The notes beneath the pieces are model-generated. The model saw only the letters and a list, made by a program, of their open reading frames with translations. It searched no databases and was not told the DNA's origin. The position numbers and the translations under genes were made by a program. Below, one piece after another: positions 10,570 through 25,053 of a DNA stretch of 64,000 bases (position 1 is its first letter; every line of letters begins with the position of its first letter). The stretch lies in NCBI RefSeq assembly GCF_965233845.1, contig NZ_OZ247584.1, positions 1,755,914 to 1,819,913 of the forward strand, written 5' to 3'. The DNA is from Flagellimonas sp. (GTDB taxonomy: Bacteria > Bacteroidota > Bacteroidia > Flavobacteriales > Flavobacteriaceae).

Positions 10570-11169
10570 ATGGCGCCCTATCAGAATCTGGAAGAATATA
10601 ATATCGAAATTACCAACGAGGTCAAGGATCGTTTTGCCAAAATCATTGACGAGATTGGGGAGGATGTGCAACGGGACGGCCTCCAAAAAACTCCTGAACG
10701 AGCGGCCAAGGCCATGTTGTTTTTGACCCAGGGATATGGCCAGGATGCAGCGGAAATTTTGCGTAGCGCCATGTTTGAGGAGGATTATGACGATATGGTG
10801 ATCATCAAGGATATTGAAGTGTATTCCCTCTGTGAGCATCACATGCTTCCTTTCTTTGGAAAAGCCCATGTGGCCTACATCCCCAACGGGCATATAGTGG
10901 GATTGAGTAAAATACCCAGGGTAGTGGATGTCTTTGCCCGAAGACTGCAAGTACAGGAGCGGTTGACCCATGATATATTGGAGTGCCTGAACAACACTTT
11001 AAAACCAAAAGGTGTGGCCGTGGTGATAGAAGCAGCGCATATGTGCATGATGATGCGAGGGGTCCAAAAACAGAATTCCGTAACCACAACTTCAGGGTTC
11101 CGGGGACAATTTGAAAAGATTGAGACCCGCAATGAGTTCTTGAAACTCATCAGCTCGGATTTGTCATAG
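10570..11169 (+). CDS. folE: GTP cyclohydrolase I
   Basis: [20 protein letters not shown] motif. 199 aa. Confidence 0.9.
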
Positions 11170-11208: not shown

Positions 11209-11490
11209 ATGGCAAAGGTGGAAGACCAAAAATATCAGCATTTACTTTTGGGATTATTGTTTGACGGTATTGGAATGCTGTCCTTCGCCATTCCGGGCAT
11301 CGGGGAATTTTCAGATGTCATTTGGGCCCCAGTGGCAGGTTGGCTCATGACCCGGATGTACAAAGGAAAAATTGGTCAAGTGGCCGGGGTGGTAACCTTT
11401 GTGGAAGAACTTATACCAGGCTTGGATATTGTCCCTTCCTTTACCTTGATGTGGCTTTATACCTATGTTTTTGCCAGGCTTAAAAAGTAA
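11209..11490 (+). CDS. Small membrane protein, hypothetical
   Basis: 93 aa with two or three hydrophobic segments. No family motif recognised. Confidence 0.5.
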   Translation: MAKVEDQKYQHLLLGLLFDGIGMLSFAIPGIGEFSDVIWAPVAGWLMTRMYKGKIGQVAGVVTFVEELIPGLDIVPSFTLMWLYTYVFARLKK

Positions 11491-11515
11491 CCACAGATTG
11501 ATCTGGGGTTCAGTA

Positions 11516-12391
11516 TCATTTGGTGGTATTGGAGTTCAAAAACCCATCCAATAGTTGATTGAATTTTTCCGGGTTTTCCCAAAACATAGCATGACTGGTA
11601 ATGGGAACGGTTTTAGCATTTGGGGCATGGGTGTGTAACCAATGGGAAGCATCATTGTACCAGTTATCCCTTACCATGTAGAGGGCTGGGATTTTACCAT
11701 CAATGCTTTTAACGATTTCATTGTAATCACTAATAAGTCCGTCAATGTAAAGGCTTAATGCCGCATATTTGGGAGTTTGAAGGGTTTCGGCGATCATCCA
11801 ATCTTCCACGGTTTTGGAAATTTCAGTTTCCAACATCCAATCCACAACAGCTTTGGCATAGCCTTCGGGGTCATTCAATAGATTTTTGAGACTTCCCCTG
11901 TAACCATCAAAAGTTCCATAGACCCATTCTGTTTCAGAATCGCCTATCCACTTTGGAGGCTCGTCAATAAAAACCAGTTGATCAAGACTCTTTGTACCAT
12001 ATTGCTGAACATACTCAAAAATAGTAGCGCATCCACTAGACCAACCAACCAATATGGCATTTTCAAGTTTCAATTCCGTAATCAAATGGTGTAAATCCTG
12101 GGCATGGACTTCATACGTATTCCCATTTTCAGTTTTGGTGGACTTGCCCTGACTCCTTGGATCATAGGAAACATATCGAAATTCTTTAGCGTAATGATCC
12201 TTCTGGTGCTTAAAAAATTCCGTGGTCATGGTCCAACCCGGTATAAAAATGACGGGCTGTCCATTTCCAACGTCTTCCACGAATAAATTCAAATCCTCAT
12301 TTGGCAGCTTAATAAAACTCTCTTGTGCAAAAAGCCAAGAAGAACCCAAGCTAAAGAGGATAATAACCAGATGTTTACAGGAATTCATCAT
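11516..12391 (-). CDS. Secreted alpha/beta hydrolase
   Basis: Signal peptide MMNSCKHLVIILFSLGSSWLFAQ. Nucleophile elbow GWSSG. The start was trimmed to the ATG at 12391, which overlaps the upstream stop in a different frame. Confidence 0.8.
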   Translation of the reverse strand: MMNSCKHLVIILFSLGSSWLFAQESFIKLPNEDLNLFVEDVGNGQPVIFIPGWTMTTEFFKHQKDHYAKEFRYVSYDPRSQGKSTKTENGNTYEVHAQDLHHLITELKLENAILVGWSSGCATIFEYVQQYGTKSLDQLVFIDEPPKWIGDSETEWVYGTFDGYRGSLKNLLNDPEGYAKAVVDWMLETEISKTVEDWMIAETLQTPKYAALSLYIDGLISDYNEIVKSIDGKIPALYMVRDNWYNDASHWLHTHAPNAKTVPITSHAMFWENPEKFNQLLDGFLNSNTTK

Positions 12392-13601
12392 GAACGAATT
12401 TAGGAATGGATTCTTTATACTGAATTTGAAGATAGTTGTGACCACCTGCTAATTTACCAAATCCCTCTGGTGTTATTTCAGGCTGGTCTGGCCCAATTAG
12501 CGTAGCTATATCTCCTACATCAACAGTTTTTTCTGGGCCAATGGCCAGATTGCAATGGCTGGCATTCACGTTGACCACGTTGTAAAGTGTATCGTTGATC
12601 AGTACTTTGGCACCGTTTTCGGCTCCGCTGTAGTATCCGTCGGCCCATCCAATGGGCAAGGTAGCAGTCCACTCATCAGCCTCTACTTTATAAAATCGGG
12701 AAAAACCAATGGTATCTCCTTTGCGCAGTTTTTCCATTCGAATCACCGGAGCTTTCAATCGATAGGCAAGTTGCAACGGCACATTTTTGGCTTGATCCAT
12801 TTTGGAAAGGGGATAAGTACCGTGCAATAATATGCCTGGCCTAACCGTATTAAAATGGGATTCTGGCAGATCCAAAAGTGATAGGGAAGGGGCCATATGT
12901 AATCTTGATGGTATGATCCCATTGTCCTTCAATTGACCAATAATATTGGAGAAGCGTTGAATTTGAGTCTGAGCAAAGTCCACTGGAGTGGTCAAGGTGC
13001 TAAATAGGCCAGTAATTTTGATGTTGGGTGTAGATGCCAATTCTTTGATCCAACCCACTCCTTTGGAGTATGGCATTCCCATCCTGCCTAAGCCGGTATC
13101 TATATATAATTCTACAAGAACCTCTTTATTACCTTGGGATGCGAGCTTTTTGATTTTGTTGCTGGATGCCAGGGAAAATGCGCTTAAGGTAATGGCATTA
13201 TTAACCAAATCCATTCCTAAATCCTCATTAAAATCCCCCATTAACAGTATAGGTTTGCTAACCCCATTTCCGCGCAGCGCAAGACAGCGTTCATCCTTTA
13301 CCAGTGCAAAACCTGCAATGTGTGTACTTTGATCTAAAATTTGAGCCACCTGAACATCACCCAAACCATAGGCATTGTTTTTTAAGACAGCCATAATAGG
13401 CTTGTTTTGTGCCATTTGGGAAATCAATTGTACGTTTTTCAAATAGGCATTCGAGGAGAGCTCAATCCAAGGATTGGTGGTTTGGCTTACCAAATTGCTC
13501 TCGCTAGGATGTAAAGTTTGCGCAAGTGAAAGATGATGCGAAAGGCCAATACCTACAGTAGCGAAGGCAGTATTTTTTAAAAATTTCCGTCGGGTTTTCA
13601 T
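12375..13601 (-). CDS. Tat-signal alanine-racemase-fold (PLP fold type III) protein
   Basis: Twin-arginine leader MKTRRKFLKNTAFATVGIGLS. PLP-lysine motif AVLKNNAYGLG and LPIGWADGY motif. An alternative ATG lies at 13625. Confidence 0.75.
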   Translation of the reverse strand: MKTRRKFLKNTAFATVGIGLSHHLSLAQTLHPSESNLVSQTTNPWIELSSNAYLKNVQLISQMAQNKPIMAVLKNNAYGLGDVQVAQILDQSTHIAGFALVKDERCLALRGNGVSKPILLMGDFNEDLGMDLVNNAITLSAFSLASSNKIKKLASQGNKEVLVELYIDTGLGRMGMPYSKGVGWIKELASTPNIKITGLFSTLTTPVDFAQTQIQRFSNIIGQLKDNGIIPSRLHMAPSLSLLDLPESHFNTVRPGILLHGTYPLSKMDQAKNVPLQLAYRLKAPVIRMEKLRKGDTIGFSRFYKVEADEWTATLPIGWADGYYSGAENGAKVLINDTLYNVVNVNASHCNLAIGPEKTVDVGDIATLIGPDQPEITPEGFGKLAGGHNYLQIQYKESIPKFVHDEFL

Positions 13602-13645
13602 TCTATTGAGTTTTATTGAGGGCATTAGAATCCTCCTACAACTAC

Positions 13646-15862
13646 TTAAAATTGCTTTAGGAGGGTAATCTTGCCAATGAATTGTCTAGTACTTTGCATC
13701 GGATCAAAAATGTCCGTTTGGGTATCGTTGAACACGAGATACACAAAAGAAAGCGGCATATATTCCCAGCTCAAACGCGCATTCCACCTTCCCTGCTCAT
13801 TAAAACTATTATACTGGTAAAAAGTGGAGAGTTGTACCCTGGGGTTCAAAGCCAACCGTAAATTAGCGGAATACAGATTTGTGGTTAGATTGGAGTCACC
13901 AATCCCCACATCTTTGATCGTATTATGCTCGTATTCCAATGCCAGTGCGGCATGGGGAATGGGGGCAAAGCGGGCAGCAGCATTTACGGTATTCCGGGTT
14001 CCGTTGTAAAAACTTCCAAAATTATATCCTAGGTCACCCGACCATTTTTTGGATTGGTCGGTGTTGTATTGCACCAAATAACGGGTGTAATAATAGTTGT
14101 CCTGAGCAATTTGGAGACCCAATGGAGCAAAATCAAAGTTGATATTTTGCCAGGTTGGCGTTGCTGAAACCTCAAAAAAACTATTGTCCTTGAACCAAGT
14201 AAAGATCGGAAATATGTACAAACTAGCCTGTTGAAACTGCGTAGGGTCTGTTGCATCATGCAAATAATTGACAAACATCCCGGGGTCCCACCGCCTGATC
14301 CAATCCATTTTTTTGGGTCTGACCACGAAATACCCGCCAGGATTATGTCTGATCACATTGGTTTGACGAACAAAACCCATTCTTGGATTGTAATTGGCAT
14401 CTGTATATTCTGTTACCCATCCATAGTAGAATTTATTGGAGTCATTGCCTGCAAAAAACCGCCCTGCGAAGCCGGTTTCCCCGGTTTCCTCGTCTATGGA
14501 TGTGGATAGGATATACTGAATATCCCATTGACTTGTGGGGCGTATTTGTCCGTCTACAGTGAGGGTGGTATTGTTATTACTTTCCAAATTCAGGTCATCA
14601 TGTTCGTTATCCAAGCGATGTGTGACCATAACCCCAACATTGTTTTCCCTACCGTAATTCCTGAGATAACGGAATACTCCAAAATTTGCTCCCGCGGAAC
14701 CATCCGTTTCCCTTTGACGTACGAACAATCCGGCCAAGGCATTTTTTTCGGTACGCTGGGTAAAACGTGCGCCAACATCAATGGGTGCCGGGGTGGCATT
14801 AAAGTTCCCCTGAAGTCCAATACGTCGGCTAAAAAATGGCCTTATGGATTGTTGCAATCCACCAGCCCAGATTCCCGAATTTTCCAAAAAGAACTGTCGC
14901 CGTTCTGGAAAAAAGATATTGAAACGTTCCAAGTTGTTTACCGCTCTGTCCACATCTGCTTGGGCAAAATCGGTATTTACCGTTAAATCCAATACGGTTT
15001 TGGGATTCATGGCCCATTTGACATCAAAACCCAACTTGGGATCACTGGCTTTGGACGTTAGAACATCTCCTTCCTTGTTTTCATCATACTGGTACAAGGT
15101 ATAGGGCTCCACCCTAATATTGGCAGAGGGAGGTGGAACTTCAATATCCGTCAATTTAGCGGCATAGGTCATTCTATAGGGGGTGAATGACTGTGGGATA
15201 GCTGGAAAAGTGGATACTTCCACTTCCCTACGGGCATAACGAACCATGGTCATTCCCAACTCGATGGTATTCCCATTTTCCGGGAGGTTGTATCGAAGTG
15301 ATTTAAACGGAATTGCCATTTCCACCGTAAATCCTTGATCTGTACGTTGCGTTCGAACCCTCCAAAGGGTATTCCAGCCTGTATCAAAATTGTTCCCATT
15401 AAAATTTTGGAAATCCCTTTGGTTCCCATAAGGTGTGGTCTGAAATCCTTGGGCATATTGTTTCAGGTTTTGGGGATCCAAGGCAACTCCAAAGATATCG
15501 TTCTCCCCCCAACTAAAATCCCGACGCAAATCCTGAATCCGAATTCCTGGAATTCCCAGGGAATCCTTACAAAATGCGGATACATATAGATTTTTGTCAT
15601 CATAAAGGAATTTCACCAAGGTTTTATAGGTGACCTTGCCTCCCTGTCTGGGTTCAATGCGAAAAAAATCATCCGCCAGTTCAACCTTATCCCATGCGGG
15701 TTCATCCAAACGACCATCAATCTGGATAGGGGACGCAGCCCTAGAAACTGAAATTTCCATGGGTACTTCCGGTGGGGGAAAATTCTCTGCATTCTCTTCC
15801 TGGGCTTGGATGCCATGTACGCATAGGAGCCAAGAAAAAATCAAAATATAATATGCTCTCAT
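13646..15862 (-). CDS. Outer-membrane-type protein with an N-terminal CBM9-like domain (DUF5916-like, from recollection)
   Basis: Signal peptide MRAYYILIFSWLLCVHGIQAQ. Aromatic-rich sequence with alternating beta-strand pattern, ending in ...LLKQF (C-terminal Phe). The start was trimmed to 15862, just after the upstream stop at 15864. Confidence 0.65.
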   Translation of the reverse strand: MRAYYILIFSWLLCVHGIQAQEENAENFPPPEVPMEISVSRAASPIQIDGRLDEPAWDKVELADDFFRIEPRQGGKVTYKTLVKFLYDDKNLYVSAFCKDSLGIPGIRIQDLRRDFSWGENDIFGVALDPQNLKQYAQGFQTTPYGNQRDFQNFNGNNFDTGWNTLWRVRTQRTDQGFTVEMAIPFKSLRYNLPENGNTIELGMTMVRYARREVEVSTFPAIPQSFTPYRMTYAAKLTDIEVPPPSANIRVEPYTLYQYDENKEGDVLTSKASDPKLGFDVKWAMNPKTVLDLTVNTDFAQADVDRAVNNLERFNIFFPERRQFFLENSGIWAGGLQQSIRPFFSRRIGLQGNFNATPAPIDVGARFTQRTEKNALAGLFVRQRETDGSAGANFGVFRYLRNYGRENNVGVMVTHRLDNEHDDLNLESNNNTTLTVDGQIRPTSQWDIQYILSTSIDEETGETGFAGRFFAGNDSNKFYYGWVTEYTDANYNPRMGFVRQTNVIRHNPGGYFVVRPKKMDWIRRWDPGMFVNYLHDATDPTQFQQASLYIFPIFTWFKDNSFFEVSATPTWQNINFDFAPLGLQIAQDNYYYTRYLVQYNTDQSKKWSGDLGYNFGSFYNGTRNTVNAAARFAPIPHAALALEYEHNTIKDVGIGDSNLTTNLYSANLRLALNPRVQLSTFYQYNSFNEQGRWNARLSWEYMPLSFVYLVFNDTQTDIFDPMQSTRQFIGKITLLKQF

Positions 15863-15863
15863 G

Positions 15864-17291
15864 CTATGGTGTAATGATGTTTTTACTGGATTGATACCCC
15901 ATTCCTTTTGCAAACCCCAGCGCTACCAATCCCAATGCAATCACTACAAGTACCAATATGCTTTTTGTGGTGCTATCGGATTCCAATGATACATATTCAA
16001 AGACGGGTAGATTTTTGTAATCTTCACTGGAAAAGGGTTGATTGTTATAGAGGAAAGGCAATAAATGCTGCCGCCAAGTTTCTGCAAAGGCCGTTACTTG
16101 CTTTCTATAATTTTCATAATCCCTTGTAGAAGTTCCTGCCAATGCGTTGAGTTCCTGCTGCACAATAATGGCAGGGGATACCCATTTGAGTTGGGAAATC
16201 CATTGTTGCTGATTCTGTAATTGACCTTCAAACTTTTGAATTACGGGTTGCAACTCTTCCCGTACCAATTGTTGGGATGCCATATACCGATGATAAAAAC
16301 TTCGGCCCTGGTTGGGGTCGTTGATGGCATATTCTGGATGATCCCTTAAAAAGTTATCCAGGATTTCATCTTGTTTCTTTGTAGCATCCTCCTTGGCATT
16401 TCTCAATTGATTAATCATCAGGGTACGGGAGGGCATAGGGTAAAGTGTACTGCCCATCTGATTCAATGTGGATGGGATCAGCAAAACAAATAGCAGCCAT
16501 AAGCCTATAAGAGCTATAGCGTTTTTCGCTGAACTTCCTACCCAAAGGTTGACTACGAACGCCACAGCAAACCAAAACAGAACGTATCCCACGGTCACAC
16601 CCAACACGGGTAAAAGATCAGCTAAGTTGCTATCATTGCCATTGATATAGAATACAATTGTGAGTATAACACCAATCATTACAATGATCCAAAACAGACG
16701 TATGACCATTTTTTGCAGTACCCATGACGCCAACGAAATGGGCTGGGAAGCCAAAAGCCTCAACGTTCCACTTTCCCGTTCTGAAGAAAGGACATTATAG
16801 GTAAATGCAATGATGATCAAGGGCAACAAGAAAATAATGACAAAGGCAGGATCAAAACTGCCAAACAACTGCTGAACGGGATTAGTGATTTCCGTGAAAT
16901 TAAGGGCTAGATCATCACCAGAGGTCTTTGGTTTTACGTAGTGCGTAAATAAATCACTTTGTCCCGTGGAGATATAAGCTAAATTGGAAGGATCCATAGC
17001 AGCAACACGTGGATGATAATTACCAACCGCCATAGGTTTGGATGGAATGGTCCAAGGCGAAGCAGAGACCTCCATACCACGTTCTATGGAGTCCAATAAT
17101 ATTAGCATTTCCTGATCGGTTTCCTTTACCTCCTGATGGGCCGCCAGAATATCCAATTTTCTCTTGTCCACTTTTTCGTGGCCGTTGTAAAAGGCAAAAA
17201 AGAACAACGCAAAAAGGAGGAGGCTCAGCAATTGGATCCAACCATTTCGAAGAAGCCCTTTTAGCTCATATATAAAATTAAACTTGTACAT
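15864..17291 (-). CDS. ABC-2-type transporter permease with large extracytoplasmic domains (DUF3526-like, from recollection)
   Basis: N-terminal TM, a roughly 110-aa loop, a cluster of TM helices, a roughly 150-aa soluble domain and a terminal TM. Two nt downstream of its paralogue. Confidence 0.7.
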   Translation of the reverse strand: MYKFNFIYELKGLLRNGWIQLLSLLLFALFFFAFYNGHEKVDKRKLDILAAHQEVKETDQEMLILLDSIERGMEVSASPWTIPSKPMAVGNYHPRVAAMDPSNLAYISTGQSDLFTHYVKPKTSGDDLALNFTEITNPVQQLFGSFDPAFVIIFLLPLIIIAFTYNVLSSERESGTLRLLASQPISLASWVLQKMVIRLFWIIVMIGVILTIVFYINGNDSNLADLLPVLGVTVGYVLFWFAVAFVVNLWVGSSAKNAIALIGLWLLFVLLIPSTLNQMGSTLYPMPSRTLMINQLRNAKEDATKKQDEILDNFLRDHPEYAINDPNQGRSFYHRYMASQQLVREELQPVIQKFEGQLQNQQQWISQLKWVSPAIIVQQELNALAGTSTRDYENYRKQVTAFAETWRQHLLPFLYNNQPFSSEDYKNLPVFEYVSLESDSTTKSILVLVVIALGLVALGFAKGMGYQSSKNIITP

Positions 17292-17293
17292 CG

Positions 17294-18700
17294 CTATAAT
17301 TTTTTAGTGGTGAGAAACAGAAGGGAAAATGAACCCAATATCCAGACAGATAAAATGGCCGAGTTGGAAGAATTCCTTGAAAGGGTTTCGGAAAGCTCAG
17401 GAGGATCATAGTCAAATACAGGCATTTCTTTCCAGGTGGATTCATCTGCCCTGTAGCTCCATTCTCCATAAGAGGAATTTTCGGCAAAATTACCATTGAG
17501 GAAGGCCTGCAGGTCTACCCGATATGTTTCTGCCGCATCAGCAAAGTCCCAGTGGGTGGCATAATCTGTATTTGCAACGGCCATACTCATAAATCGTGCA
17601 GGTAAAAAAGGCGATAACACGGCCAGGTTGCGGTACAATTTGGACTGTTGCTCAAATTGTGTTTTTAAATGCTTATAATGCTTAAAATAGATTTCAGCGG
17701 TATGTTCCTCCCCTTTCTGCATCCGATAGGCGTCAAAATTGAATGGAAGTTGTTCCAAACTATCCACATTATGCTGCTTTAAGACTTCATCTTCCAGCAT
17801 TTTAGCCTGTTTGTTCCATGGATCATGACCGTCAATTCCACTTTTTTGATCCTTGGTTATGCTCGCAGCGAATTCTTGTCTAGTAGGGTAGGGATATTGG
17901 GATTCTGCCATATTGCTAGCGGCCTTCGGAACTGCCAAACAAGCTAATATCCAGACCCCTAGAGATAATACAAGAGAGATTCCCGATTTCTTCATTTTAG
18001 AGGAAATGAACAGGACCAAATTGATGAATATCATATAATAGACCATATACACTAGCAACATAACCCCCAAAGATTCCCAGCTAAACACACCAAAATCCTT
18101 AAGATTGGACAGGACAATTCCAGCTACCATAAAAAGTAGTGCTACAACGAGGAAAATAGGAGTGAAAATAGCCAACCACTTTCCAAAAATCAGTTTCCAG
18201 ACTGGAGTTCCCTGACTTTTCAAAAGCACCAAGGTTCCCATTTCCTTTTCTTTGGTGAAGGCGTTGTATCCAAGAAATACGATCAACAAAGGAAGAATAA
18301 ACAAGAGCACAAAATCGGGCGTTAAGTCGCCAAATCGGGCCAATCCAGTTTGATCTGCGGCTTGGCTAAATTGGGCTTCGTTACGTTTATGTGCCTCCAA
18401 GAAAATGGAGGTTCCAGTAAATTTATCAACCCCATGATCCACAAGGGAAAGCGGATATTTGGGTTTAAAGGCATAAGTGCCATAGTGGGCGGCGGAATGT
18501 GGGTTTTTTTCTCCTTGACCTTCCCAAATGTGACGCTCAGCGGTTTCGGCTTCCTTATATTGTTCGTTGATTGTTGTGTACTGGCTCTTACTGATCCAAG
18601 TGGCTACCGCCATCAATAGCACTACAATTAGAAAACTAATTCTGACTCTTCCGTCCCGAGACAACTCCTTAAGTTCTTTTAGAAATGTACTGCGTATCAT
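17294..18700 (-). CDS. ABC-2-type transporter permease with large extracytoplasmic domains (paralogue of 15864-17291)
   Basis: Same topology as its neighbour. Its start overlaps the ATPase stop by 4 nt. Confidence 0.7.
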   Translation of the reverse strand: MIRSTFLKELKELSRDGRVRISFLIVVLLMAVATWISKSQYTTINEQYKEAETAERHIWEGQGEKNPHSAAHYGTYAFKPKYPLSLVDHGVDKFTGTSIFLEAHKRNEAQFSQAADQTGLARFGDLTPDFVLLFILPLLIVFLGYNAFTKEKEMGTLVLLKSQGTPVWKLIFGKWLAIFTPIFLVVALLFMVAGIVLSNLKDFGVFSWESLGVMLLVYMVYYMIFINLVLFISSKMKKSGISLVLSLGVWILACLAVPKAASNMAESQYPYPTRQEFAASITKDQKSGIDGHDPWNKQAKMLEDEVLKQHNVDSLEQLPFNFDAYRMQKGEEHTAEIYFKHYKHLKTQFEQQSKLYRNLAVLSPFLPARFMSMAVANTDYATHWDFADAAETYRVDLQAFLNGNFAENSSYGEWSYRADESTWKEMPVFDYDPPELSETLSRNSSNSAILSVWILGSFSLLFLTTKKL

Positions 18701-19413
18701 ACTACTGCCTCTTTGTAGTCCATGGTTTCCAAGTATGCATGTTCCAAATCACTTAGGGATATCTCATCGGCCACAAATTCCTGCTTCAATTGGCCATTTT
18801 TCATAATACCAATGTGCGTGGCAATTTCTTTTGCCCTAAATAGATCATGGGTGGCCATGAGAATGGCTACGCCCTTGCTTCGTAACTTTTGGAGCAGCAA
18901 ACCAAATTCGTTGCTTGCTTTGGGGTCTAAGCCCGAGGTAGGCTCATCAAGTAACAACACGCTGGCATTTTTGGCCAGAGCCAGGGCTATGCCCACTTTT
19001 TGTCGCATTCCTTTGGAAAAGGTTGAAATTCGTTGGTGGAAGGCACTGGTTTGAAGTCCAGCCTCTTCCAAAAAAGCCTCCAATTTGGCTTTATTCAATT
19101 GGTTTCCGCCAATACCGGAGAAGTAATCCAAGTTCTCAACTGCGGTCAGGTTGGGATATAGCATAAGATTTTCAGGGATGTAGGCAAGATGCTTTTTAGT
19201 CTTTTTTGGGTTTTCGGAAACAGCAAGACCATTGATAAAGCAGCTACCGGATGTGGGCTTGATAAAACCCAGTAACAGGTTGATAGTGGTAGTTTTACCG
19301 GCACCATTGGCTCCTAACAAACAGTATAGGTCACCGGCTTTGATGTTTAGATTGAGATTGTCCAGTACAGTAGCATCACCATAAACCTTGGAGAGATTGT
19401 TGGTCGTAATCAT
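18697..19413 (-). CDS. ABC transporter ATP-binding protein (ABC-2 subfamily type)
   Basis: Walker A GANGAGKTT, degenerate signature FSKGMRQK, Walker B LLLDEPTSGLD. Confidence 0.9.
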   Translation of the reverse strand: MITTNNLSKVYGDATVLDNLNLNIKAGDLYCLLGANGAGKTTTINLLLGFIKPTSGSCFINGLAVSENPKKTKKHLAYIPENLMLYPNLTAVENLDYFSGIGGNQLNKAKLEAFLEEAGLQTSAFHQRISTFSKGMRQKVGIALALAKNASVLLLDEPTSGLDPKASNEFGLLLQKLRSKGVAILMATHDLFRAKEIATHIGIMKNGQLKQEFVADEISLSDLEHAYLETMDYKEAVV

Positions 19414-19519
19414 TTTGAGTTGTTTTTTGATTTGAAGTGTATATGCAATCGCACCCTCAAAATCGTTTTTGACTTCGAAGTGTAAAGAACCAGGGCCAAA
19501 TCCTGATGGAAAGGCCTAT

Positions 19520-19861
19520 TTAGATAAGGGAGATACGGGGAGAGGGAGGACCCCGTCTATAGTTGGTATAATGCCCAACAATTGAAGAGAGTTGGCTTTT
19601 GGATTCTGGAACCCGAAAGCACAGGGAACCGTGGTCTGGGGAATAGGTTTCTGCGGTGTGAACCGCCGGAGTGGGGTTCAATTTTGCGCAGATGTCACAT
19701 GCATCTTCGCTACTGCTAACCCATTCATCGCTATTGGCTTGGTCCTGTTCAAAATCATTTGCATGAAAAATAAACATATGGTAAGCACCAAACAGCTGCT
19801 GTATGGCTAATACAGCAACCATTAAAGTGCTTAAGACCGTATGTCTAAATTCTTTATTCAT
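19520..19861 (-). CDS. Small membrane-anchored Cys/His protein (paralogue of 22982-23284)
   Basis: N-terminal hydrophobic anchor, YHMFIFH, an acidic stretch, CDIC and a C-terminal HYTNYRRGPPSP. The order of elements matches the 100-aa protein. Confidence 0.6.
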   Translation of the reverse strand: MNKEFRHTVLSTLMVAVLAIQQLFGAYHMFIFHANDFEQDQANSDEWVSSSEDACDICAKLNPTPAVHTAETYSPDHGSLCFRVPESKSQLSSIVGHYTNYRRGPPSPRISLI

Positions 19862-19883
19862 GAAATAATTATGCTATTTACAG

Positions 19884-19906
19884 CACCTTGATTTTGAAAT
19901 CAGGTG
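19884..19906 (-). terminator. Stem-loop immediately after the lipoprotein stop codon (possible partial terminator or mRNA-stability element)
   Basis: CACCT(T)GATTT / AAATCAGGTG form a stem of about 10 bp with a 1-nt bulge. No U-tract follows. Confidence 0.3.
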
Positions 19907-20500
19907 TTACTCTATAGTTAGGTTAAAGGTTTGTGTGATATCGGTTTCACCACCAGCATCAGCCAAAGTCCCATCATTGGGTTTTTTAGGCTCATGTCGC
20001 AAGGTTACCGTAAGAGTTCCGGAGCTTGCATCTGTCGTGGTAAGTGTAAAAGTTATGCCCACAGGATTATTGGTGGTGAAATTGGTGCCCGTCTCGGCAG
20101 AAACGTAGTCAGATTCTTCATCACTATACTCCGTTGTGGCATTTAACCCACCTTCAACAACATAGAAGAACTGATGCTCTGCAGCTTCACCTTCTATTTC
20201 CTCATTGACTTCTTCTGCAGGAGTTTCAGTTTCATTGAGGAGCACAACAGATCCGTTATAGGTTGTGTTTTCCGCCAAATTTCCCGAAACCGTGATTACA
20301 GGAGCATTTGGACCATCGCCATCCAAATCCCTGGATTGTAGCTCGATGGCAGTTCCGCCACCGTCTGGGGTAAGGGTAACCGTCATGGTAGTGATGGTTT
20401 CCTCTTCATTGATTTCCTCCGGGGAGTTATCATCATTGGAGCATGATGCCAAAAAACTTCCCGCTAGGATTGCCATTGATAAAAATTTGATCGTTTTCAT
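19907..20500 (-). CDS. Acidic surface or periplasmic lipoprotein, hypothetical
   Basis: Lipobox LAGSFLASC. Asp/Glu/Thr-rich sequence. 12 nt downstream of the TonB-dependent receptor. Confidence 0.7.
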   Translation of the reverse strand: MKTIKFLSMAILAGSFLASCSNDDNSPEEINEEETITTMTVTLTPDGGGTAIELQSRDLDGDGPNAPVITVSGNLAENTTYNGSVVLLNETETPAEEVNEEIEGEAAEHQFFYVVEGGLNATTEYSDEESDYVSAETGTNFTTNNPVGITFTLTTTDASSGTLTVTLRHEPKKPNDGTLADAGGETDITQTFNLTIE

Positions 20501-20512
20501 GTAATAAAGGAT

Positions 20513-22912
20513 TTAATAATTAAGTTTTAATTGAATCAAAATGTTTCTCCCTAAATCATCGGCGAAAAACCTTTGGCGATTTAGATAGTCCCTATAATTG
20601 GTGTTCAAAAGGTTATTGACCACCAATGAGGTCGTTATTTTTTTATTTCCTCCCCATGGAAATTCCATTTGAGAACGTAAGCCCAACAGGTGATAGGCAT
20701 CTGGTGCTGTATTTATTTCGAGCAGAACTTCCTGTTGCTGCTCAGGAGAAAAGACCACGATGTTGTCCGGTGTCTCATTTTGTCTAAACACATATTGACT
20801 TTCCAAGGAAACACTGAAATTTTTCCATTGGGGAATGCTATACGTGATTTGATTGCCCAAATTAGCTGCCGGAATATTGATCAAAGCTGTATTGTTGTCC
20901 ATTTCCTGTCCTTTGACCAATGAAAAGCGATGGTCCGTTTTCCATGAGTTCGTCCAATGGGCGTAGGCCGAGAAATCCAGTCCAAGAAGTCTGGCATCGG
21001 TCTGACGGTATTCCCAGACCGGAAAAGCACCTCTAATGGTGAACTCCACACCTGAGGGCTCCAGGAGTAAAAAGTTTTGTACCCAGTTGGCAAAAGGTTC
21101 CACGGAATATCCCCAAGAATCAAAATCCTGTTCAAAGGAAGCCGTGAACTTGTGTGAGGTCTCGTTATCCACCCTTAAATCCCCCAATTCAATTCGGGCC
21201 GCGGAATGATGCAAGCCGTCGCTAAACAATTCAGAAGGGTTTGGCGCTCTCTGGGCCAAGGCGTAGTTTAATTTTAAGGTCTCTCCCGTGTCCCATTGAT
21301 ATTTCCCACCTACTGTGGCCGAAATGTTATGGTAGTCAAATACAGGATTGACCAACAAAGAAGTTCCTAAATCTTCCACAATTAAATCTTGGAACTCGCT
21401 GTTGTATCCACGTTCATTCCATCTGGAAGTTTGATAAAATTTTTGGGCATCTATTCTGGTGAAATCGTAGCGGATACCCCCTTCCAGTAAGAATTGATCC
21501 GAGATTTGGATTTCACCCAATGCAAATGCTCCCAGGTCGAACTTCTCATAATCCGGGATCAACCTACGAACTCCAGTTGCGGGATTGGGGAAATTTTCCT
21601 GATAGCGACCCAAAAGCCCCACATGCATTTGATAATCTTCCTTGGAATCCCATTTAAAATCAGTAGATAGGGTATGGGTGGTCAATTCCAAATCTATGGA
21701 GGCCCGGCCATCCAGTTCTCCTCGTCGAACATCAAATTCGAACCGTCGATTGCTTTGAAAATCATATTGGAAATTCCATTTGCCAAGTCCTTCAAATCTT
21801 TTATAAAAATGGAGCTTGGCCAAATGATGTTTTACTTCTTGTTTTGGGTTTTGCAGATCATAGGTGAAATCACGGATAACCTCGGGTTGTCCATTGTTAA
21901 TGCTTCTGATCAAGTCATCCACATTACCAATATGGGAAGCCCGTAAAACAGCAATTTCAGAAGAAAAATAGGCATACCGAATGTCCCAACCCCAAGTGAA
22001 CAAACGCTTTCCGAACCTTAAGGAGGTGCCAAATTCCTGTATTCCGGTATTGGAAAGGACATAATCTGGAGCCTCCAAATCCCCAAGTCGTTTGTAGGAG
22101 CCTTGAACCTTGGCAAACCAGCCTGATCCAAAGGCTTTGGTCAACTCGGAGGTTATTGCGCCTCCTCTACCATTGGTATTGCCACTGATCAGTGTTTTGC
22201 CAAAAATGGTATCCTTAACAGGAATTTTGGCCTGTTCCAGAACTATGGTTCCCCCAATGGCATCACCGCCATACTGTAGCGCCGATGCCCCCTTTATTAC
22301 GGAAACAGCTCCTGCTGTATTTATATCGATATTAGGGGCGTGTTCATCTCCCCATTCCATATCTTGCATCCGCACGCCATCGTTTAGAATCAAAACACGG
22401 CTGCCATTTAAACCGTGAATAGTTGGCTTTACGATGTTGGCACCGGTATTCAGAGAAGAAACGCCCCCCAATTCCCGCAAAGCATCACCCAGAGTTCCCG
22501 AACTATAAAGTTCCAAGGTCGGAAGCTTCAATTTTTCCTCGGATGCTGTATTGGTCTTGTCGTTAATGGCTTCTCCAACTACATCCACTTCATCCAATTC
22601 CTCCAAATGGTGTTCCAACTTGATGTCAATTTTGGTATCCTCTTGGATCGCTATATTCATTAAAATGGTGTTGCATTCGGGATGCGACACTTCCAATTCA
22701 TAATTCCCAGCGCAAACTGCGGACATTAGAAAATTTCCATCGGCATCGGTTTCTACCGAGTGGGCAGTTCCTACAATCAAGAGGGTTGCATTTTCCAAGG
22801 GTGATTTGCTATGGTAATCTGTTACTTTACCGGTAATGGTATGGGTGCAATTCTGCGATAGGCCCCAAAAAGGGGTTGCTATCACTAGTGTGATGAAAAG
22901 CAATGCTTTCAT
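20513..22912 (-). CDS. TonB-dependent receptor with an N-terminal carboxypeptidase-regulatory-like domain
   Basis: Signal peptide. TGKVTDYHSKSPLENATLLIVGT (CarboxypepD_reg-like). Plug region LDEVDVVGEA...GANIVKPTIHGL. Long beta-barrel ending ...QLKLNY. Confidence 0.9.
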   Translation of the reverse strand: MKALLFITLVIATPFWGLSQNCTHTITGKVTDYHSKSPLENATLLIVGTAHSVETDADGNFLMSAVCAGNYELEVSHPECNTILMNIAIQEDTKIDIKLEHHLEELDEVDVVGEAINDKTNTASEEKLKLPTLELYSSGTLGDALRELGGVSSLNTGANIVKPTIHGLNGSRVLILNDGVRMQDMEWGDEHAPNIDINTAGAVSVIKGASALQYGGDAIGGTIVLEQAKIPVKDTIFGKTLISGNTNGRGGAITSELTKAFGSGWFAKVQGSYKRLGDLEAPDYVLSNTGIQEFGTSLRFGKRLFTWGWDIRYAYFSSEIAVLRASHIGNVDDLIRSINNGQPEVIRDFTYDLQNPKQEVKHHLAKLHFYKRFEGLGKWNFQYDFQSNRRFEFDVRRGELDGRASIDLELTTHTLSTDFKWDSKEDYQMHVGLLGRYQENFPNPATGVRRLIPDYEKFDLGAFALGEIQISDQFLLEGGIRYDFTRIDAQKFYQTSRWNERGYNSEFQDLIVEDLGTSLLVNPVFDYHNISATVGGKYQWDTGETLKLNYALAQRAPNPSELFSDGLHHSAARIELGDLRVDNETSHKFTASFEQDFDSWGYSVEPFANWVQNFLLLEPSGVEFTIRGAFPVWEYRQTDARLLGLDFSAYAHWTNSWKTDHRFSLVKGQEMDNNTALINIPAANLGNQITYSIPQWKNFSVSLESQYVFRQNETPDNIVVFSPEQQQEVLLEINTAPDAYHLLGLRSQMEFPWGGNKKITTSLVVNNLLNTNYRDYLNRQRFFADDLGRNILIQLKLNY

Positions 22913-22981
22913 ACTTAAATCAATAAAATATTAGTGTTCATTTAGGACTCCTATACAAGTCCAGTTGCGGGATTCAAGCCA

Positions 22982-23284
22982 TTAGGCCTGAGCTGAGGGT
23001 GGAGGCCTCGAAAAAAAGAAATGGGAGCTGGGAATTGGAACATTTATCTGATACTGGAATTCCACCTCTTCGGTAATGAAGAAAGTGTTGACTTCCGGTA
23101 TCATGACCTTTCCAGTAATTTCAAAATTGGATTGCTGTGATTCCAGTGCAATTTCGCAGATAGCACAGTTTTCAATTTCATGTGTTTCCCCATCTTGATG
23201 GGAGTAAACATGCAAAGCAGAAACCTTCACCAACATGAGGGTGGCGAACAAAAGAAATACGAAAATCTTCTTTAAATCCTGCAT
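22982..23284 (-). CDS. Small membrane-anchored Cys/His protein (paralogue of 19520-19861)
   Basis: Anchor IFVFLLFATLMLVKVSA, then HVYSHQDGETHEIEN, CAIC and a C-terminal HFFFSRPPPS. Confidence 0.6.
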   Translation of the reverse strand: MQDLKKIFVFLLFATLMLVKVSALHVYSHQDGETHEIENCAICEIALESQQSNFEITGKVMIPEVNTFFITEEVEFQYQINVPIPSSHFFFSRPPPSAQA

Positions 23285-23291
23285 TAGATGG

Positions 23292-23299
23292 CAAATCTA
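23292..23299 (-). promoter_or_regulatory. Candidate Bacteroidota -7 box (TAGATTTG) in front of the first gene of the receptor locus
   Basis: Matches TAnnTTTG on the minus strand, 8 nt upstream of the ATG at 23284. This would imply a near-leaderless mRNA. Confidence 0.25.
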
Positions 23300-23339
23300 A
23301 CCAAATTAATGGTAGGAATTATGTTAACAAAACCTTAAA

Positions 23340-23855
23340 CTAGGGGATTAGGAACCCCAGTCCCATGCGCTTGAGCATCTTCTTTTCAAAGTCCCAAAAG
23401 AACTTAAACTGGCCAAAAAGCCATCCGAAGCAAATCAACAGTACCTGATATATGGGAAAAATAAGCAGGATTCTAGCGGTCCAATACAGCCAGCCGCTTA
23501 CCAAATCCCGTTTTAGTCCAATGATTTCGGTCAATGGTCCGGCCAATTTACCGGAGAGACTACCCGTGACGGCAAAAACGATAAATATGGCTATCATTTC
23601 CCAACGTTGTTCCACAATCCATTTATTGGATAATTTCTTGAAGCACCATAAAAAAAAGCGGAGCATCACATAATATAAAAGGACTGAACTCCCAAGCGTA
23701 AAAGGCCATTCCCAAATGCTGTTGTTTAATTCGAAGAGATGCAGAAACCTCCTGGCAATCATATAGGCGGTAAGAAAAAGCAATGCTACACCCAGGAAAG
23801 GAAAAAGGTATTGCCAGTTTTGGGTAATGTCCCAGCGTGCTTTTATTTTTTTCAT
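23340..23855 (-). CDS. Integral membrane protein, hypothetical
   Basis: 171 aa with four to five hydrophobic helices. No catalytic motif seen. Confidence 0.55.
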   Translation of the reverse strand: MKKIKARWDITQNWQYLFPFLGVALLFLTAYMIARRFLHLFELNNSIWEWPFTLGSSVLLYYVMLRFFLWCFKKLSNKWIVEQRWEMIAIFIVFAVTGSLSGKLAGPLTEIIGLKRDLVSGWLYWTARILLIFPIYQVLLICFGWLFGQFKFFWDFEKKMLKRMGLGFLIP

Positions 23856-23885
23856 CGAATAAATTTCGACGGCAAAAATAACATT

Positions 23886-24344
23886 TTATATCCTTGGAAG
23901 GAAGGGACCCAATCGCTGATTGTATTTGCGTTGGAAATAAATAAAATAGTTGTAGAGCTTGTAGTTTACATCGTACCCATAATCTATATTCGGGTCATAA
24001 TCAATCTGGAGTTGATAAAGATTGGGATTGAATCTTTGGGGCTGAAGTACCCTTTGATTCCAATTGATGACCAACAATTGATTTCGGTTTTCCAGAAAGT
24101 GTTGGGAATAATAACCTTCTGGTCTGGCTATGCTTTGCAGCCATTGATAAAAACCGGGTTCAATGATGATGATTTCGTACTCTGTTTCTTCATCCTTAAT
24201 TTCAACCTGTGCATCATCTTCCGAGGTAAAAACCGCTTTTTCCTCTTCAGATATGGCCACCGTTTCTTTTTGGGCCGTACAGGAAAGAATCAATCCCAGA
24301 ATCATTACAGCCCCAAATAGCTTTTGTAAAATGTTCTTTTTCAT
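23886..24344 (-). CDS. Lipoprotein, hypothetical
   Basis: Start trimmed to MKKNILQKLFGAVMILGLILSC (lipobox). No family motif recognised. Confidence 0.55.
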   Translation of the reverse strand: MKKNILQKLFGAVMILGLILSCTAQKETVAISEEEKAVFTSEDDAQVEIKDEETEYEIIIIEPGFYQWLQSIARPEGYYSQHFLENRNQLLVINWNQRVLQPQRFNPNLYQLQIDYDPNIDYGYDVNYKLYNYFIYFQRKYNQRLGPFLPRI

Positions 24345-24411
24345 AATATTAAGGTACGAAAAAGCCATTTGAAATTTCAAATGGCCTTGTTAAATAACGT
24401 TAATTCTTGGA

Positions 24412-25053
24412 TTATTTCCTGAAGAGGCCTCCCAAGAGCCCTCCAAGTCCACTTTTCTTTTGATTGCCGCCGCTAAGTACCATTCCGGCTAAATCGTCAA
24501 TAACGCTGCCGTCTCCATCGGAATCCAAGAAGGTCTCAATAAGGGATTGTTGCCTGGTAGCAGAGCTTCCTCCTCCCATAAGTCCTCCTAAAAGGCCACT
24601 AAGGGCATCAGGTTTGCTTACGTTTTGCTGACGGGTCTGTTTGCCCAAGTACCCTAAAAGAATGGGTGCAGCTATTTTCAAAATTTGTGCTATAGATCCA
24701 GTATCCATGCCCGACTTGCTGCTCAAGGCACTTTCCACCTGTGGTTGTTTTGCTCCGAAGATATGTCCCAATATCCCTGCTCCATCATTCATTACACTTT
24801 GATCTACACCACCGCCGAAAAGTCCACCAAGATCATCCAAAATACTTCCGTCGTGTTTTGAAGAAAGCGCGTTCATCAATCCTTCTGCACCGCTTTGGGT
24901 AGAGACATTTCTTTTCATGGCACCCATAAGCAAGGGCATGGCCATACTGAGCACATCTGCGGTCTTGTTTTCTGGCTGCCCTGTTTGACCGGCAACTCCG
25001 CTAATTAATTGTTTGCCCATTGGGCTGTTTAATAAATCTAATAATCCTGACAT
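24412..25053 (-). CDS. DUF937-like Gly-rich protein (from recollection)
   Basis: N-terminus MSGLLDLLNSPMGKQLISGVAG and repeated GGLLGGL/GGLFGGG segments. Confidence 0.55.
   Translation of the reverse strand: MSGLLDLLNSPMGKQLISGVAGQTGQPENKTADVLSMAMPLLMGAMKRNVSTQSGAEGLMNALSSKHDGSILDDLGGLFGGGVDQSVMNDGAGILGHIFGAKQPQVESALSSKSGMDTGSIAQILKIAAPILLGYLGKQTRQQNVSKPDALSGLLGGLMGGGSSATRQQSLIETFLDSDGDGSVIDDLAGMVLSGGNQKKSGLGGLLGGLFRK

Follow-up and report, generated by a model that had tools for sequence, protein, structure and literature searches.

In Caulobacter crescentus, the genes for the TonB receptor ZnuK and for ZnuGHI, an 'ABC-2 type' ATP-binding cassette (ABC) system of one ATPase and two permeases, are repressed by Zur from a Zur-bound promoter, and znuK is required for growth under zinc starvation (PMC4176598). 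Small leader open reading frames (ORFs) have been characterised in copper-responsive operons: CruR of Bordetella pertussis (Bp2923, DUF2946), with CXXC and RAPP motifs at a spacing of 45 ± 1-2, heads a TonB-transporter operon, and copper on the nascent chain relieves ribosome arrest, leading to Rho termination (PMC9426467); CutF of Rhodobacter capsulatus combines a signal peptide, CXXXC and a C-terminal PPP, with copper-induced stalling melting a stem-loop (PMC9973294; 10.1101/2025.02.05.636593). Many Bacteroidota members, some of them not copper-specific, are included in a survey of CutF-like proteins by Öztürk et al., in which zinc and ABC transporters are unmentioned. Features of both kinds of system are found in a ten-gene locus at positions 11,516 to 23,284 of a 64,000-nucleotide stretch (the window) of a Flagellimonas/Allomuricauda flavobacterium genome (GCF_965233845.1, contig NZ_OZ247584.1, positions 1,755,914 to 1,819,913), which on balance probably represents a composite zinc-starvation uptake locus with leader-peptide sensors and an optional cassette.

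All ten ORFs (g1 to g10 in transcription order) lie on the minus strand of the window, successively separated by gaps of 69, 12, 45 and 106 nucleotides (nt), a 4-nt overlap, gaps of 2, 1 and 20 nt, and a 17-nt overlap, with the most plausible starts (ATG at 15862 for g8 and at 12391 for g10) used for the junctions. The ORF coordinates bear out this arrangement as described in an earlier note on the same DNA, and Pfam and NCBIfam profile searches agree with its fold calls of a TonB-dependent receptor (g2), an ABC ATPase (g5), two ABC-2 permeases (g6 and g7), an alanine racemase (g9) and an alpha/beta hydrolase (g10); the remaining genes encode two small Cys/His leader ORFs (g1 and g4), a lipoprotein (g3) and a putative outer-membrane protein (g8). 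No SusD, periplasmic binding protein or cytoplasmic catabolic enzyme was identified among the ten products with either profile collection, in keeping with the view of that note that this is not a classical polysaccharide utilisation or siderophore locus; in the test for the former, g2 scored 47 bits with TIGR04056 against a cutoff of 368, g3 lacked a SusD domain, and no glycoside hydrolases were present. The best related locus is that of F. flava, with a g6 97% identical.

The note had also proposed that the ten genes form a single system, a reading that it had itself staked on co-conservation, and this did not survive a neighbourhood comparison of 80 genome loci, retrieved with g6 as the seed and including 10 kb on either side, in which gene orders were read after clustering the ORFs. 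The ATPase and two DUF3526 permeases were present in 77 of the 80 loci, the remaining three being short or cut contigs, with the ATPase at a fixed offset before the g6-type permease in all related loci. Around this core, the TonB receptor, lipoprotein, DUF5916 and racemase/hydrolase genes are variable parts: a DUF5916 gene directly follows the second permease gene in 30 of 71 loci and, among the 56 full-length loci, is found within 10 kb in 39; a TonB receptor, of the g2 type or another, lies within 10 kb in 27 of those 56; and the racemase and hydrolase are found in only eight. The g3-type lipoprotein is always paired with a g2-type receptor in related loci. The locus is thus made of three modules, A (g1-g3), B (g4-g8) and C (g9-g10); because its genes are not co-conserved across related loci, and the racemase/hydrolase pair is a clean indel, the single-unit reading is refuted.

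The boundaries of module C are exact. Homology to the two closest relatives, L001 (the 97%-identical locus) and L006, ends precisely at the g8 stop codon and restarts at 11490, which DNA comparison with both identifies as the stop of the convergent downstream gene, so that the cassette (11491-13645, minus strand) constitutes a 2,155-bp indel relative to related loci, missing from both of these relatives and present in L002. The two genes are always paired and co-directional, and in other genomes they lie 3' of four different island operon types. By sequence, g9 (12375-13625, minus strand; 416 aa; Ala_racemase_N/C) is a bona fide alanine-racemase-family enzyme, predicted to be Tat-exported from its motif TRRKFLK: it scores 206.7 bits with TIGR00492 (cutoff 168), its best PDB relatives are alanine racemases (E = 2e-37), and the pyridoxal phosphate-lysine motif VLKNNAYGLG is present. 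The secreted hydrolase g10 (11516-12391, minus strand; 291 aa from the ATG) falls in the cofactor-free haloperoxidase/arylesterase group of alpha/beta hydrolases. An envelope system of ten genes, with g9 and g10 processing D-amino-acid material moved by the transporter, would account for the co-directional, tightly spaced genes of the window, and the recurrence of the pair at the 3' end of four metal-island operon types leaves room for a functional link; it is nonetheless a very improbable explanation, given the precise indel, the presence of the pair in so few full-length loci, and a conserved core that gives no hint of a peptide or amino-acid substrate, with fold assignments the sole source of the D-amino-acid processing idea. 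A separable, optional accessory cassette, possibly with a loose functional link to zinc limitation, is preferred here. 'Ten-gene operons' read off one genome can be mosaics, in this case two regulated modules and a mobile cassette.

At the heads of modules A and B are the leader ORFs g1 (22982-23284, minus strand; 100 aa) and g4 (19520-19861, minus strand; 113 aa), neither of which belongs to a Pfam or NCBIfam family and both of which are named only 'hypothetical protein' in public records. The g1 product features a signal peptide ending VSA, followed by LHVYSH and CAIC, and then, after a spacer of 49 residues, RPPP, which is four residues short of the stop; in that of g4, a hydrophobic segment at the N-terminus is followed by YHMFIFH and CDIC, with a spacer of 44 residues leading to RGPP, seven residues short of the stop. 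They are the only ORFs combining CxxC with a C-terminal [RK]xPP in all six frames of the 64-kb window. The earlier description of the two as paralogous stands for their common motif architecture and falters on sequence, at only 15% identity. Eight clusters of operon-heading ORFs of approximately 100 aa share one design, namely a signal segment, a His pair, an acidic linker, CxxC, a spacer and [RK][PG]PP. CxxC and [RK][PG]PP are found in 79 of 81 leader ORFs, the proline motif (RPPP in 35, RGPP in 23, KPPP in 20, RDPP in one) lying mostly 2-4 residues from the stop; the N-terminal hydrophobic segment is present in 76 of 79 family members, and across 55 aligned leaders an invariant first Cys is joined by a nearly invariant second Cys and by His25.

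Spacer length between CxxC and the proline motif is fixed within subfamilies despite a spacer identity of only 24-42%: 44 residues in all six c37 and 12 of 14 c16 leaders (the g4 type), 49 or 50 in 19 g1-type orthologues (24% spacer identity), and 51-53 in the c3 type. The combination of drift outside the motifs with constant length points to a tunnel-length constraint rather than a fold. The 80 leaders with a same-strand neighbour are followed by an ATPase (48), a TonB receptor (21), a COG0523 protein (seven), a lipoprotein (two) or another gene (two); 46 of 76 loci have a leader of this design directly 5' of the ATPase gene, and the figure becomes 60 of the 76 for a leader 5' of the ABC genes once rescanned loci and those with COG0523 in between are counted, and in eight more loci a leader heads a receptor-lipoprotein-ABC operon. 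The intergenic spacer after leader ORFs has medians of 65-248 nt versus 1 nt at other junctions of these operons. The last 150 nt of the leaders are rich in C (0.22-0.35, with G at 0.13-0.18, versus 0.19 and 0.21 in controls), a bias that comes partly from Pro codons.

[quoted passage not shown] A plasmid-borne betaproteobacterial counterpart from Comamonas, featuring HxxxH, CxxC, a 44-residue spacer and RGPP, gave a weak full-length match to DUF2946 (E = 0.1; 13.8 bits, cutoff 23.7); the failure of the PF11162 profile test on the flavobacterial sequences, discussed below, is the reason for which the leaders are filed as working like CruR and CutF rather than as DUF2946 members. An alternative role, as membrane-anchored or periplasmic metallochaperones passing metal from the receptor to the permeases, would be served by the signal peptide or anchor, by two His and CxxC as a plausible Cys2His2 zinc site, and by the strict linkage to receptor and ABC operons that encode no separate binding protein. 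This is unlikely: leaders are missing from the four Cytophagales loci with a Fur-type box at the ATPase and from the Methylocystis plasmid locus as annotated, all with the full ABC system; the sequence drifts outside the motifs while spacer length does not; the C-terminal R-x-P-P, the first-gene position and the long downstream spacer are left unexplained; the permease g6 has a conserved His/Glu site of its own; and CruR is thought to be exported and then degraded (PMC9426467). Both g1 and g4 are more likely regulators than chaperones or metal handlers. The suggestion of the note that the His/Cys proteins point to metal is thereby retained, and only the handling role gives way, to an architecture that better fits CruR/CutF leaders and to an ABC system that also occurs without them.

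Candidate regulatory elements accompany both leaders. Upstream of g1, a promoter-like element (23292-23327, minus strand) comprises TTAACA (23327-23322), a 22-nt spacer and TAGATTTG (23299-23292), with 7 nt to the ATG; this layout is common to related loci, where most g1-type leaders are preceded by TTAACA-N22-TA(G/n)nTTTG, 41-43 nt before the ATG. TAnnTTTG matches the Bacteroidota -7 consensus, and the layout would imply an almost leaderless g1 mRNA. In many relatives (L001-L054), TTAACA forms part of a possible operator, the imperfect inverted repeat TTATGTT-N6-AACATAA (7-6-7), of which the window has a degenerate left arm, TTAAGGT. Directly upstream of g1 and co-directional with it are three conserved genes of unknown function (23340-25053), syntenic with the locus in Flagellimonas, whose products are a multi-pass membrane protein of 171 aa, a lipoprotein of 164 aa and a Gly-rich protein of 213 aa, and read-through into g1 may occur from the gene of the 171-aa protein, 55 nt away. 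The 106-nt spacer between g4 and g5 (19414-19519, minus strand) features a 10-bp hairpin at 19455-19480, with arms CUUCGAAGUC and GAUUUUGAGG, and folds better than shuffled sequences (RNA fold z = -2.93); related spacers carry hairpins at equivalent positions, with some compensatory changes judged by eye. A promoter and terminator scan of the locus returned nothing above shuffled expectation and no intergenic minus-strand terminator, and an Rfam scan of the whole window matched no family. In seven other loci (L021, L022, L032, L041, L043, L048, L066), a strong GC-rich hairpin with a T-run, for example GGGGAGTGGA...TCCACTCCCTTTTTCC, ends 3-8 nt before the leader ATG; this terminator-like element lies between the lipoprotein gene and the c16 (g4-type) leader and is absent from the window.

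Metal-homeostasis genes recur around the conserved core, upholding the earlier suspicion of a metal-related locus. At least one marker gene lies within 10 kb in 33 of the 56 full-length loci, on a list that also counts MerC, DUF4625, His/Met-rich protein and MacB/FtsX ABC genes and is to that extent not zinc-specific; within it are COG0523/CobW (17 loci), a Fur-family regulator (ten) and a metal-independent carbonic anhydrase (five; NF047901, E = 1e-39). Other recurrent neighbours include MerC-like membrane proteins, alkaline phosphatase, His-rich lipoproteins (DUF4625 among them), a FecB/FecCD-type ABC system, and a MacB/FtsX ABC transporter with a His-rich loop. In seven loci the COG0523 GTPase is inside the operon, in the order leader ORF, COG0523, ATPase, permeases. 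A palindrome, TGCAAC-N3-GTTGCA, often in tandem approximately 38 nt apart, is found 5' of the genes for the Fur-family regulator, COG0523, carbonic anhydrase, MerC and thioredoxin-reductase-like proteins (L013, L016, L031, L033, L045, L057, L058, L072-L080); it also occurs 13-126 nt 5' of the ATPase gene in the Cytophagales loci L072, L076, L077 and L080, and 5' of the leader in L017 and L031, and is a candidate Zur box of Flavobacteriia and Cytophagia. The proteobacterial Zur box TGTTAT-N5-ATAACA had no match on the Blastomonas and Methylocystis plasmids. From this neighbourhood, zinc is the likely substrate, and the statement in the earlier note that no substrate could be assigned is revised: the neighbouring genes point to zinc, and the architecturally equivalent ZnuK/ZnuGHI is Zur-repressed in Caulobacter.

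Some island genes may bear on zinc use more loosely. In L016 and L031, FolE-type-I-like paralogues (222-248 aa) lie beside the carbonic anhydrase gene, the housekeeping gene (199 aa) being at 10570-11169 in the window, and these extra copies may be zinc-sparing GTP cyclohydrolase I variants. The c12/c22 neighbours resemble ZrgBCD/PA4064-66, an identity that is not claimed because c12 has no DUF3299 match, and the zinc exoprotein ZepA (PMC10957091), of different architecture and not found in Bacteroidota, was dismissed as a comparison.

Copper, or another metal, is an alternative to zinc, with the leaders acting as CruR-like copper sensors that switch off copper uptake. The characterised CruR and CutF sense copper and not zinc (PMC9426467, PMC9973294), as does every characterised DUF2946-type leader, and most Cys-motif CutF-like genes adjoin copper genes; g2 weakly resembles the copper receptors OprC and TonB-copper (TIGR01778); g6 is similar in its transmembrane part to NosY, a component of the NosDFY machine for copper delivery; and MerC-like and His/Met-rich proteins occur in the islands. 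Five loci (L016, L030, L031, L040, L068) encode c34, a secreted protein of approximately 160 aa with HxxM/MxxH repeats, divergently from the leader-ORF operon, and this protein, reminiscent of SilE/PcoE, is the main hint that copper or silver might matter in some islands. Against a copper role are the presence of COG0523 inside the operon in seven loci, the metal-independent carbonic anhydrase together with a Fur-family (Zur-like) box shared with the ABC operon, and the additional conserved His pair of the leaders, which gives a Cys2His2 site typical of zinc; no CopZ, PCuAC, Sco, CopC or multicopper oxidase genes were identified among the annotated clusters of the 80 neighbourhoods. Copper is on these grounds decidedly unlikely.

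Zinc, or a zinc complex, would then be brought across the outer membrane by the products of module A. The receptor g2 (20513-22912, minus strand; 799 aa) has Pfam Plug, TonB barrel and CarboxypepD_reg domains, and its best NCBIfam matches are the TonB-hemin and hemlactrns families, ZnuD and TonB-copper, with scores that fall far short of the respective cutoffs; the ZnuD model NF038289 is missed at 103.5 bits versus a cutoff of 950. The closest solved structure by sequence is ZnuD (PDB 4rdr, E = 5.8e-12, plug region only), followed by OprC, which would place g2 in the neighbourhood of ZnuD, haem receptors and OprC. Its partner g3 (19907-20500, minus strand; 197 aa) is a lipoprotein with the lipobox LASC, outside any Pfam or NCBIfam family and with no relative in the PDB by sequence, in which D58, D60, G63, E96, E101, H109, Q110, H169 and D187 are invariant across 22 homologues. 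The acidic stretch after the lipid Cys, CSNDDNSPEE, resembles the Bacteroidota surface-export signal, and g3 is probably surface-exposed. An assignment to DUF4625-type lipoproteins was dropped, as the alignment covers the signal peptide alone.

Transport across the inner membrane is attributed to the core of module B. The ATPase g5 (18697-19413, minus strand; 238 aa) is ABC-2/DrrA-like (Pfam ABC_tran, TIGR01188-like), and the partner permeases g6 (17294-18700, minus strand; 468 aa) and g7 (15864-17291, minus strand; 475 aa) both combine DUF3526 and ABC2_membrane_2 above Pfam gathering cutoffs, at 103.2 and 80.8 bits for g6 and 102.6 and 81.5 bits for g7. DUF3526 (PF12040) permeases form a family of 3,598 clusters at 50% identity (E <= 1e-3), and searches of the literature turned up no paper on this domain or on DUF5916. 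Hydrophobic segments and N-terminal positive charges, read by eye, predict large periplasmic regions in g6 at residues ~41-125 and in a DUF3526 domain at ~260-445. The two permeases differ in their conserved residues: across 72 orthologues, His68, 72, 104, 292, 333, 341 and 383 are conserved in g6, versus a single conserved His (H318) in g7. In 152 distant g6 homologues (144 representatives at 31-52% identity and plasmid examples), His68, His72, His104, Glu102, Glu331, Asp379 and Glu391 are 91-97% conserved, and this His/acidic set is absent from every second permease examined. The set of His68, His72, His104 and Glu102, in loops predicted to face the periplasm and confined to one subunit, would fit a built-in metal site replacing a separate binding protein.

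Immediately downstream, g8 (13646-15862, minus strand; 738 aa from the ATG) features a signal peptide, CBM9_1 and DUF5916 domains and the C-terminus KQF. It has no sequence relative in the PDB; in an AlphaFold2 (AF2) model of low confidence (predicted local distance difference test, pLDDT, 61), the region behind the CBM9-like domain (residues 361-737) consists of over 20 long strands, and Foldseek returned only generic large-barrel matches (FimD, LptD, TonB receptors, MtrB) at template modelling (TM) scores of 0.3-0.4. The protein is a predicted outer-membrane beta-barrel ending in Phe, and because it is tightly linked to the permeases a role as a second outer-membrane partner is suggested.

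The ABC-2 (type V) fold mostly serves exporters and mechanotransducers, and the only solved relative of g6, matched by its profile over approximately 125 transmembrane residues (PDB 7o0y, E = 4e-4), is NosY, itself a non-importer; the AF2 model of g6 (pLDDT 57) was too poor for a fold search. In view of this relationship, the DUF3526 complex could instead act as an exporter or as a NosDFY-like mechanotransducer that might strip zinc from a carrier, load envelope proteins or export a zinc scavenger through the DUF5916 barrel. The co-conserved g8 barrel directly downstream is what a trans-envelope export route would require, and operons of leader, ATPase, two permeases and DUF5916 occur without a TonB receptor of a recognised cluster nearby (for example L018, L023 and L036). 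An export role is nevertheless somewhat unlikely, as no metallophore biosynthesis genes are conserved nearby, a cytoplasmic COG0523 zinc chaperone encoded in the same operon fits delivery to the cytoplasm, NosD- and NosL-like partners are absent from the locus, and znuGHI is the only annotated Zur-regulated ABC system of Caulobacter, read by its authors as a high-affinity importer. Import is the most likely direction.

Receptor and ABC-2 genes are also paired elsewhere. Second or third DUF3526 systems are present in the same islands of seven loci (L019, L020, L030, L039, L041, L046, L072) with different partners, either ATPase-231 with a TonB receptor of 830 aa, or a TonB receptor of 780 aa with a DUF4374 lipoprotein; because these additional systems also sit with TonB receptors, the pairing of TonB receptors with DUF3526 appears general. 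A TonB receptor with an ATPase and two DUF3526 permeases is likewise annotated on plasmids of Blastomonas, Comamonas and Hymenobacter, and fused double permeases of 966-967 aa exist (P0274, P0294).

In the proposed model, the ZnuD-like receptor g2 and the probably surface-exposed lipoprotein g3 (module A) would carry zinc, alone or in a complex, through the outer membrane, and the ATPase and DUF3526 permease heterodimer (module B) would move zinc from periplasm to cytoplasm with no binding protein, as proposed for ZnuGHI, with the DUF5916 barrel g8 as a co-conserved outer-membrane part. The leaders would act as cis-acting sensors and not as transport subunits, g1 gating g2-g3 and g4 gating g5-g8. 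The ribosome would stall at the C-terminal R-P-P-P or R-G-P-P, placing the CxxC/His site, 44-50 residues upstream, just outside the exit tunnel, where bound metal would alter the stall and so decide downstream transcription or translation across the long structured spacer. A CruR-like polarity (metal present, downstream genes off) is expected because the leaders gate uptake genes. A further-reaching reading is put forward tentatively, in which g1 and g4 would be the first zinc-responsive arrest leaders, and the first studied in Bacteroidota, forming a Cys2His2 branch of the CruR/CutF design unseen by Pfam and gating in tandem both membrane steps of a single uptake pathway. The DUF3526 system under their control would then be a novel type of metal importer, free of a binding protein, with the 3-His/Glu site inside one permease and the DUF5916 barrel as its partner.

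Besides the hints of copper and of export already given, several observations speak against the model. The loci were picked by g6 homology and their genes called by a crude longest-ORF method. The excess of RNA structure in post-leader spacers over other spacers is marginal (p = 0.027, all loci), and PF11162 (DUF2946) gave no match to g1, g4 or flavobacterial representatives, even at E <= 10, so that the leaders resemble CruR and CutF in architecture rather than by demonstrated homology. The Fur-type palindrome has only chance-level matches in the 64-kb window and none in the locus, and its absence is why zinc regulation of the window copy depends on the leader-ORF hypothesis and on orthology. 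The likeness to ZnuK/ZnuGHI is one of gene architecture, with DUF3526 membership of ZnuH and ZnuI a strong lead. More broadly, we infer the identity of the metal, the direction of import and the stalling mechanism with its polarity from sequence and gene neighbourhood.

Little is understood of how marine Flavobacteriia, or Bacteroidota as a whole, acquire zinc, and the locus offers a testable role for three families of unknown function, DUF3526, DUF5916 and the unnamed leader-ORF family. If the leaders sense zinc, the arrest-peptide concept would reach beyond copper to a second metal, zinc, and beyond Proteobacteria to a phylum whose translation initiation is unusual; Shine-Dalgarno-dependent initiation is generally absent from Bacteroidota. 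Zinc import by the DUF3526 system would make it an ABC-2 importer without a binding protein, bearing on how ZnuGHI-type systems work.

Among described systems, the likeness of the locus is closest in different parts to different relatives. Neisseria meningitidis ZnuD is a zinc-regulated TonB receptor of the haem-receptor clade, of which only the plug aligns significantly with g2, and g2 differs in its N-terminal CarboxypepD_reg domain and partner lipoprotein. NosDFY is, similarly, an ABC-2 system dedicated to periplasmic metal handling, in which NosY resembles the transmembrane region of g6; the Nos system has no DUF3526 periplasmic domain, no heterodimer of two permeases and no link to a receptor, and the locus lacks NosD and NosL. 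The transport modules have their nearest architectural counterpart in ZnuK/ZnuGHI (CC1517-CC1520), where a TonB receptor likewise adjoins an ABC-2 ATPase and two ABC-2 permeases with no binding protein; there, the evidence for ZnuGHI concerns expression rather than transport, the Zur box lies between divergent genes, and no leader ORF, lipoprotein or DUF5916 barrel is present. For the leaders, the PPP arrest motif of CutF resembles the RPPP of g1, although CutF switches on a detoxifying oxidase with copper, via a stem-loop over the ribosome-binding site, whereas the targets of g1 and g4 are uptake genes. CruR differs in lacking the additional His pair of g1 and g4, in a copper rather than zinc context, and in the absence of two tandem leaders in one locus; Roy et al. 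found no CruR in Bacteroidota (PMC9426467), the phylum of g1 and g4. Yet it shares with them a small exported first ORF, an invariant CXXC, R-x-P-P a few residues from the C-terminus, a C-rich 3' region and a long spacer to the next gene, and its peptide spacer of ~45 residues compares with 44 in g4 and with 49-53, ending in RPPP or KPPP, in the g1 subfamily.

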